A DNA stretch of 55,937 nt, counting the filler, from Sluysia triapertura (lineage: Eukaryota): NCBI GenBank assembly GCA_046118255.1. It is 3 parts of 3 records of this genome, joined end to end, with 100 filler letters (N's around TTAATTAATTAA, not from the genome) between each part and the next. Parts side by side here need not be neighbours in the genome. Positions count along the whole stretch, not along the records: positions 20,108 to 35,594 come from JBJNIA010226904.1; 2 more parts are not named here. One strand, 5' to 3'. How positions within the stretch are numbered: position 1 is the first letter of the stretch; each line of letters begins with the position of its first letter. Shown here piece after piece: positions 29,770 through 31,099 of the stretch. Below the pieces are notes generated by a model, which searched no databases, was not told the origin of the DNA, and saw only the letters and a list, made by a program, of their open reading frames with translations. Position numbers and translations under genes: made by a program.

Positions 29770-31099
29770 AATTCTGGTCATCCCACACAAACTCTGATAT
29801 ATAAGTTAGCTCCTATTAGTCGTCCAATCAAAAAGATTTTCATGTGTAAAATCAGTGTAGAACTGATTGGACGATTAAAATTAAATTACTCGATTGTGAC
29901 GAGGCACCAAAATTTCATTTTGATAAAGTAACCACTATCAATGATGACAGCACAAGTAACTCAAAGTGTCACCATTGATAGTGGCAATATTTTAAACGGA
30001 TTCACTAAAATTAAAATTTAAAAAATAATGACAAAAATATAATAATAACAATAACAATAATAACCGTAGAAATATTAATGTTATTATTGTTATTGTTGTT
30101 AATACATAATTTCTTGAATATTCCACACGAACTTCCTTTCTTTTCTTTATTTGTTCTTAACATGTTTTGAATCAATTAAAGTAAAAAAATTGATAAAATT
30201 GAGTATAAAAACAAAATGTTAATATAAATGCATAATTTCTTATACTTTTGAACATGATCTTGCTTTTAATATTTTAATAATTCTTAACATATTTTAAATC
30301 TAAATGAAATGAAAAATAATAAATTTGAATGCAGTAACAACAATAAGATGCACGATGATCCAGTTATTGTTGTTATTGCATTGCATAAACATGAATTCTT
30401 TAAAACTGTACACCATCTTCCTTTGAATCGTTAGAATTCTAAACATATTATAATGAGTTTAAATATATTTGAAGCTAAAGTCTTAATGGAAAGATTAGTT
30501 GACATGAATTTATATATATGATTGATGTTTGGAGTTCTGTTAATAGTTTTTATGTTGTTTAGTGAAACTGAGAATGTTAAAATAGATTTTAAATGGTGGT
30601 TTAAGTTCTTGATTGAGAACGACACTTGAGTATTGGAAAATCGTGATTAAAAGATCTATTGAGAAAAGTGCAATTTAATGAATGTGAAAAGGTAAATTAT
30701 AGTACTACTCTTATTATATTTGAAAGGTTATTGTACACTATTATACATGGTTTATTTTCTTGTTGTTTTGAGTGTTGTTATCTTATGTGATGTTAGTGGT
30801 TATGTAATGAAAAATGATGAATTTAAGGTGTTGTAATTGATTCGAAGGTATAGAGTGGGTAATTTCGAATGTAGTTGTTTGGTTGTTATGAATGTCGAGT
30901 AGCATGTTTTTGGTGGATTAGTTGGTGTAAATTGGTAATGTTGGGTGTAATTGTGATTTGTATGTTGTGGAATTGAGTTGATTTTAGTAGGTAAACTGTT
31001 TTGTGAGTATAAAGGGAATAGATGTGTAGATGTTAAAGTGTTTAAAAAATATATTAATTACTAATAAAACTTTAATGGTTATGAGGGTTGACCACCACA
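29770..31099 (-). mobile_element. Complete head (copy C) of cargo-carrying family
   Basis: Terminus tgtggtggtcaaccc (revcomp from 31099); ~650-bp C/A-rich tract; three ATGTT(A/T)AGAA..AAG(A/T)T(C/G)RTG motifs (~30445, 30290, 30165); inverted repeats 29932-29949/29967-29984 (17/18) and 29816-29830/29864-29878 (14/15, CCAAT); TATA-like tatata ~29800. Confidence 0.8.

Follow-up and report, generated by a model that had tools for sequence, protein, structure and literature searches.

Twin inverted repeats, IR1 and IR2, stand before the cargo of a dispersed family of 1–3 kb elements in Sluysia triapertura, and the symmetry of their arms persists between subfamilies while the arm sequence itself changes. 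The family has defined ends and 5-bp target-site duplications (TSDs), its cargo is diverse, and its helicase cargo has lost host introns. The reading that best joins these observations, which we advance tentatively from the sequence, is that the twin repeats may form a DNA dyad promoter of interchangeable cargo, located in solo LTRs of a Gypsy-like retrotransposon.

The window, by which we mean the whole stretch of DNA analysed, comprises 55,937 nt from assembly GCA_046118255.1 (619 Mb, 263,945 contigs). It joins three parts of three records, at positions 1–20007, 20108–35594 (JBJNIA010226904.1) and 35695–55937, and the GC content of these stretches is 24–27%. The host is an animal, since the window contains the first exon of an ENaC/degenerin channel gene (35711–36286, minus strand; Pfam ASC). 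Copies C, E and F are elements in the window, and L-numbers denote fetched loci of the same genome.

Boundaries, termini and target-site duplications

Copy C is a 2,850-bp element (28250–31099, minus strand; TGTGGTGG...CCAAA on the cargo strand) at both ends of which multi-copy homology stops sharply, and it is flanked by identical ATTCA sequences, the left TSD at 28245–28249 and the right at 31100–31104. Copy F spans 2,818 bp (45832–48649, plus strand; TGTGGTG...CATCACA) with the TSD ATTAT, and matches L209 at 84.7% over 2.9 kb. The ends of copy E were not found; homology in its arm breaks off at 41843. A second dispersed repeat (window 41838–42517; L143, 1000–3900), which often lies beside or around family members, interrupts this arm, and the start of the first stretch (1–204, plus strand) is occupied by what is left of a further family member, a truncated arm with its end. 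On the cargo strand the order of parts is TGT(A/G)GTGG..., an arm of 0.7–1.3 kb (39 copies), IR2, IR1, the cargo and a short far end. In copy C the non-coding arm, from the module of twin repeats to the TGT end (30300–31099, plus strand), is G-skewed, with a GC skew of +0.30 to +0.58, and it includes the conserved 14-bp terminus of the family, which forms the TGT end on the cargo strand (31086–31099, minus strand) and was located by matches to a 24-nt pattern.

A search of the assembly with 721 bp of copy C gave at least 59 matches among 40 scored of 1,735 candidates. The 24-nt terminus pattern had 48 exact matches and its reversed control none, while 222 distinct ends occur among the fetched loci. 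Selective end-pattern searches returned 34 and 53 positions, with none for the reversed control; dividing pattern counts by the chance of the added letters, we infer that the genome holds roughly 10,000 family ends.

TSDs were assessed with a far-end profile built from within-element sequence, using 12 copies with both ends, of which 11 snapped to a boundary (the right end of L024 is doubtful). Five of the 11 have an exact 5-bp TSD and seven have one with at most one mismatch, as compared with permutation means of 0.45 and 1.46; exact duplications of 4, 6 or 7 bp were absent. A wider census, for which the end patterns were picked after the ends had been viewed, gave 9 of 60 (null mean 1.95, maximum 7), and an automatic boundary census of long stretches was too noisy for TSD counts. 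The helicase copies F, L279, L282 and L291 run from TGT to CATCACA within exact 5-bp TSDs, two of these TSDs being GC-containing. Several copies with both ends have no TSD (L031, L038, L048 and L390), and two shortened copies, L104 (1,464 bp) and L105 (975 bp), retain both ends and the TSD. The TGT end is constant. Helicase-type copies are the only ones with CA at the far end; in copies of the C and cap-methyltransferase types the far end reads AA or TA. LTRs of the planarian element Burro reportedly have other non-canonical ends. No terminal inverted repeat (TIR) of 40 bp or more was found, the element ends matching over ∼7 bp only.

Contigs of run X1 join 28249 to 31119 through 25 other letters, with only 20 letters on one side, and this junction may be a paralogous empty site of copy C. 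Nesting of copy C in a related element starting at 27202 was considered and rejected, because, apart from a TAT microsatellite, the flanks have no counterpart among the fetched loci.

Host genes carried as cargo

The broken cargo of copy C (28836–29684, minus strand; open part 28839–29525, with an ATG at 29684 read from the sequence) is of RRN3-like origin. Over 201 aa it shares 68% identity with the 456-aa ORF of L124, which matches Pfam RRN3 at an E value of 2e-12. The cargo itself matched no relatives (0 of 109 candidates, and 0 matches in a profile search of 1.84 billion proteins), separate searches with L124 gave none either, and the name of the cargo therefore comes from the single Pfam match of L124. 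L124 (G000:C193439, 306–3323), likely the host RRN3 gene, is a single frame of 456 aa at which no dyad was found, and an inverted, cargo-bearing copy of itself adjoins it. A second RRN3 match, L203 (G000:C170374), was set aside as a 518-bp, GC-richer contig unlike this genome; it bears an RRN3 exon and is possibly foreign to the genome. Copy E has broken cargo with decapeptide repeats and an Unkempt-like CCCH finger (39729–40920, minus strand; Pfam zf-CCCH_UNK, E 4e-7), and copy F a broken copy of a host DDX47/RRP3-like helicase (47036–47906, plus strand), which matches the host gene L276 at 76.7% and is without its 36-nt intron.

Pfam named 10 of 37 element-interior frames (DEAD, Helicase_C, kinase, RRM, KY-like and Unkempt-like CCCH), found kinase and CCCH in three of eight further frames, and assigned PF03291, the mRNA cap guanine-N7 methyltransferase, to seven of the eight frames of a third set. 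No transposase domain was present in the 53 cargo frames scanned (37 + 8 + 8), a small sample of the family. Copies of the E, F and kinase types have CCCH-like motifs downstream of their cargo, and in several subfamilies the frame runs past the element end. Helicase cargo gave at least 150 matches (949 candidates), and ∼100 RRN3-type contigs are among the matches listed. Loci L345–L374 belong to a younger subfamily with tandem cap-methyltransferase pieces in open frames of 250–470 aa, of which seven of seven tested match PF03291; many contigs of the cap-methyltransferase subfamily break 70–210 nt inside the TGT end.

L276 is an intron-containing DDX47/RRP3-like host gene with no dyad upstream. 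None of the 20 alignable copies, copy F included, has the 36-nt GT–AG intron of this gene, within which in-frame stops occur (26 copies were examined, six of them below the alignment score). L227 and L282 show a clean loss of the 40-nt first intron of L276; among the copies listed, most others start after that exon. The similarity of helicase copies to L276 ends at the next donor site. Because host introns are missing in the copies, we conclude that the helicase cargo, which is the cargo that this evidence covers, was captured via spliced RNA.

Elsewhere in the window, an intact-looking 288-aa frame (51511–52377, plus strand) has no Pfam match and neither a family end nor a dyad nearby; by eye we take it to resemble permuted papain-like NlpC/P60 (YiiX-type) enzymes. 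A 360-aa frame (10748–11830, plus strand), likewise with no Pfam match, has short tandem repeats upstream at 10618–10765.

Symmetry, position and probable action of the twin repeats

The first-pass annotation had described twin inverted repeats in copies C, E and F, and our own inverted-repeat scan of the window recovered them: only nine inverted repeats exceed the score cut-off, and six of these lie within the three copies. In copy C, IR1 (29816–29878) has arms at 29820–29830 and 29864–29874 that pair at 11 of 11 positions, with CCAATCA and TGATTGG cores 33 nt apart, and IR2 (29932–29984) has 18-bp arms (29932–29949 and 29967–29984, 17 of 18 paired) with the cores ATCA and TGACA. The loop of IR2 is 17 nt in copy C and 24–25 nt in 51 of 63 copies. 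Copy E (41014–41189) has an IR1 with CCAAC arms (41014–41033 and 41062–41081, 18 of 20 paired) and a decayed IR2 (12 of 18 paired; folding z −0.8 and −1.0), of which most sister copies keep a good stem. Copy F (46587–46760) combines a decayed IR1 with an IR2 (arms 46587–46603 and 46637–46653, 16 of 17 paired, loop 33), each arm of which is 2 nt shorter than in copy C. Against 200 shuffles, the folding z of both repeats of copy C, of IR1 in copy E and of IR2 in copy F ranges from −4.4 to −8.2. The presence of CCAAT/ATTGG in IR1, as originally described, holds for both arms of copy C only, copy E having CCAAC in both arms and copy F CCAAT in one.

The scan also detected two low-complexity AAC/AAT inverted repeats, IR3 and IR4, in the arm of copy C (30047–30382). 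Outside these copies, a 20-bp inverted repeat with a 42-nt loop (18302–18383) has no relation to the family arms, and a 46-bp inverted repeat with a 47-nt loop (26274–26412) adjoins a tRNA-like repeat (∼26457–26546), decayed copies of which lie at ∼24383–24446, 5830–5890 and 6064–6131.

A profile search gathered 79 distinct modules, which were sorted into 26 subfamilies. The covariation check proposed in the first-pass annotation proved significant on 16 subfamily representatives, changes on both sides being present in 11 of the 19 pairs of IR1 and in 12 of the 18 pairs of IR2 (in an alignment that includes one misaligned row, L170); such counts were reached in 14 of 500 shuffles for IR1 and in none of 500 for IR2. 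Cells with double changes number 33 in each repeat, as compared with shuffle values of 13.8 (IR1) and 12.1 (IR2), and none of 500 shuffles reached them; the shuffles ignore kinship, yet at least one double change is needed in each of 23 different columns. In slid controls, pairing falls to 20–60%.

When each subfamily is represented by a single copy (21 for each repeat), identity between arms stands at 0.78 in IR1 and 0.83 in IR2, as compared with 0.67 and 0.69 for deranged partners. Over all copies, arms match their own partners at 0.78 (IR1, n = 68) and 0.79 (IR2, n = 72, with ∼9 mis-anchored rows included) and those of other subfamilies at 0.67 and 0.65. The statement that arms resemble their own partner more than they resemble other copies is thus upheld against other subfamilies and fails against sister copies, whose left arms are 0.91 (IR1) and 0.88 (IR2) identical; the 5′ arm is kept better than the 3′ arm in both repeats (0.91 vs 0.84 and 0.88 vs 0.84). 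Identity to the own partner minus that to the sister partner is 0.003 for IR1 (19 positive and 28 negative of 54) and 0.005 for IR2 (33 positive and 24 negative of 57), and sister copies have one mismatch in common, as at position 13 of the C-type IR2. There is no sign of arm conversion after insertion. Of the two processes originally proposed to keep the symmetry, selection or conversion, covariation between subfamilies bears out that symmetry is kept, while the lack of an own-partner excess over the sister partner speaks against conversion within each genomic copy. Since there is no such excess within subfamilies and sister copies have mismatches in common, symmetry appears to be renewed in active lineages and not in inserted copies.

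The module lies directly upstream of the cargo, as first reported, at ∼100–300 nt before the cargo start sites and at 132 nt in copy C, as read from the sequence. The spacing of CCAAY and RTTGG is 34–41 nt in 68 of 76 dyads, a group dominated by C-type copies, with none at 42–45 nt and five at 46–49 nt; shuffled loci give one dyad. The 46–49 nt group, about one helical turn longer, comes from three lineages and is small in number. The CCAA/TTGG cores of IR1 are invariant, and the sequence inside them need not pair. At loci chosen by helicase protein alone, a dyad occurs within 600 nt upstream in 12 of 20, as compared with 0 of 16 within-cargo windows and 1 of 60 shuffles. By eye, the CCAAT dyad is kept in 9 of 13 cap-methyltransferase copies, some having TACGT-type palindromes in place of IR2. 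Of 24 helicase loci only one has a module that the C/E/F profile matches, and of 20 such loci three have a strict CCAAY dyad, so that the exact C/E/F twin is one type of module and is not universal.

We consider it probable that the module serves the cargo as a symmetric promoter of CCAAT type, acting at the level of double-stranded DNA, a reading to which the invariant cores, the loops that need not pair, the spacing, the CCAAT dyads that lack IR2 and the site before the ATG all point. A dyad promoter fits best among the functions originally suggested. A replication origin or packaging signal drew no support from any test made, and strict dependence on NF-Y is weakened because CCAAC occupies both arms in 7 of 16 subfamily representatives, CCAAT being found in 9 of 16. 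TATA-like words show no enrichment (11 of 21 subfamilies, null 9.3), and a look-up for copy C listed no RNA data set that contains it. The TGACA of IR2 is presumably a TALE site. A composite of TALE and NF-Y sites, at a spacing of 11 bp, is described in vertebrate promoters (bioRxiv 10.64898/2026.02.16.706105).

Covariation by itself would have suggested RNA structure. We regard it as rather unlikely, however, that IR1 and IR2 are RNA hairpins on the strand opposite the cargo, whether as an LTR R-region structure or as a foamy-virus-like double-hairpin precursor of small RNAs. That strand does fold better, for IR1 in 14 and for IR2 in 11 of 16 subfamilies, which are not independent of one another. 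IR1 has G–U counts of 25.6 on the opposite strand and 10.2 on the other, with 11 subfamilies favouring the former, two the latter and seven tied (the comparison dropped rows below 60% arm identity, two for IR1 and nine for IR2). Substitutions in the module among C-type copies are strand-symmetric, so that plain mutation bias fails to explain IR1, but a non-stem skew of G over C of +0.27 predicts part of the strand bias. The preference for IR2 is split 11 to 7, and IR2 of copy C itself folds better on the cargo strand. A size of 55–75 nt, the better conservation of the 5′ arm and the loss of 2 nt from both arms in copy F would suit hairpins; loops of 25–45 nt that are often unpaired, the gap in the spacing distribution and the lack of an Rfam match for the module at E 1 would not. 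More improbable is a reading in which template switching from one arm to the other, during replication of the master elements, produced the symmetry incidentally, with one arm or none functional. Such switching would yield double changes and the matched 2-nt deletion, and it is consistent with one arm being more conserved and with the free decay of dead copies (IR2 of copy E, IR1 of copy F), but position and spacing, at the least, must be under selection to account for invariant cores, fixed loop lengths and a fixed pre-cargo position in more than 20 subfamilies. The inverted repeats also offer a natural mutagenesis series for separating DNA dyads from RNA hairpins.

Origin of the element and comparison with known systems

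Taken together, RNA capture, the 5-bp TSD, the TG ends and the strand skew favour an LTR retrotransposon. Reverse transcriptase reads its two templates in one and the same sense, so that the RNA strand of the element would be that of the cargo; the arm would then be U3, and the cargo would lie in R/U5. In the model that we tentatively favour, the 0.7–1.3 kb arm and the module would constitute U3, with transcription starting between IR1 and the cargo ATG. Spliced host mRNA would have been copied into R/U5 by template switching of reverse transcriptase and later carried in both LTRs, and recombination between the LTRs would have left single units. Arm symmetry would be renewed in active masters by selection for two like binding sites, by arm-to-arm templating or by both, while dead copies decayed. 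Since a unit with an internal start site cannot copy its own arm via RNA without a second copy, the model needs a two-LTR parent.

Searches for such a parent found no immediate flank shared among 221 TGT-side ends or among 39 far ends; a looser start limit gave one flank pair, which resembles a second repeat. No polypurine tract (PPT) emerged, none of 34 pyrimidine-run flanks recurring, and no primer-binding site (PBS), none of the 30 TGGNG flanks examined (of 53) recurring, nor did 110 stretches of 3.5 kb to ∼10 kb, or the three window stretches, contain a pair of long direct repeats. The absence of a parent carries little weight, because the assembly is in 263,945 contigs, contigs break at young copies, and internal regions that differ between subfamilies would not appear as shared flanks. 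We do not class the family as solo LTRs, because a two-LTR parent with internal region, PBS and PPT was not found.

It is unlikely, in our view, that the element is instead a complete stand-alone unit, moved by an integrase-like transposase of the Ginger/TDD type acting on TGT and ACA/AAA ends and taking up cDNA of host mRNAs, with the inverted repeats as an internal promoter. Spliced cargo is not given by a DNA-only route, a strong strand skew such as that of the arm is more typical of retroelements, the ends match over ∼7 bp where a TIR of 40–270 bp would be expected, and the 53 frames contain no transposase domain. On the other side, an internal region, PBS and PPT were not found at 260 ends, and the shortened L104 and L105 are complete with both ends and TSD. 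TGTNR ends are common to Ginger and Gypsy, and 5-bp TSDs are made by TDD-4/5 (PMC2836005). We give somewhat less credence to an element class in the form of a single LTR-like unit, without internal region, primer site or TIR, that would be moved by integrase via its 14-bp end and would load spliced host mRNAs behind a self-symmetrising dyad promoter; if true, this single-unit class would be a mass producer of chimeric genes of RNA biology, with copies numbering roughly ten thousand.

Captured sequences of at least seven different host genes occur in the family; some have been amplified to hundreds of copies, and each stands behind a portable promoter-like module. At such scale, capture inside a single terminal unit has no precedent that we found in the literature searched, which also yielded no account of single LTR-like units that bear both cargo and this module; published planarian LTR families could already include such units. 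LTR-mediated retroposition in animals comprises a few dozen known cases, between two LTRs.

Several described systems resemble the family in part. The dumbbell pri-miRNAs of foamy virus LTRs (PMC7693620, PMC3993851) also place two adjoining hairpins of 60–70 nt in a terminal repeat, but are described as Pol III RNAs with shown products, whereas the repeats here have long loops and CCAAT cores and are known from DNA alone. Pack-TIR and Pack-MULE elements (PMC8277862) are non-autonomous as well, and they too carry fragments of host genes and multiply them; as described, they capture genomic DNA between TIRs, intronless cases having been filtered out in that study, whereas the cargo here is spliced and TIRs are lacking. 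Ginger1 and Ginger2-TDD (PMC2836005) share the TGTNR terminus and, in TDD-4/5, the 5-bp TSD, but are characterized by TIRs of 40–270 bp, by TSDs that are mostly of 4 bp and by a DDE transposase; no such feature was found here. LTR elements with the non-palindromic ends TGTT and AACA (PMC5659011) similarly keep TG or CA at one end while the other drifts; those described are plant Copia and TRIM elements with two LTRs, and in the present family the far end varies by subfamily (CA, AA or TA).

Solo LTRs of large Gypsy elements (Ogre, with LTRs of 1.9–6.5 kb, and planarian Burro; PMC6431247) are comparable in size, TG start, 5-bp TSD, thousands of copies and host-like accessory domains in the lineage; the likeness to Burro is one of description only, its accessory domains being described in the internal region, and no parent was found here. 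LTR-mediated retroposition as reported by Tan et al. (2016; PMC5131818), and maize Bs1, share with the family spliced, partial or chimeric copies of host mRNA on LTR-type sequence, amplified as non-autonomous units. In that account two LTR parts of a known retrotransposon enclose the retrocopy, whereas in the present family, in which a second LTR, PBS and PPT were not seen, it lies inside one unit with a single TSD and reaches hundreds of copies per cargo.
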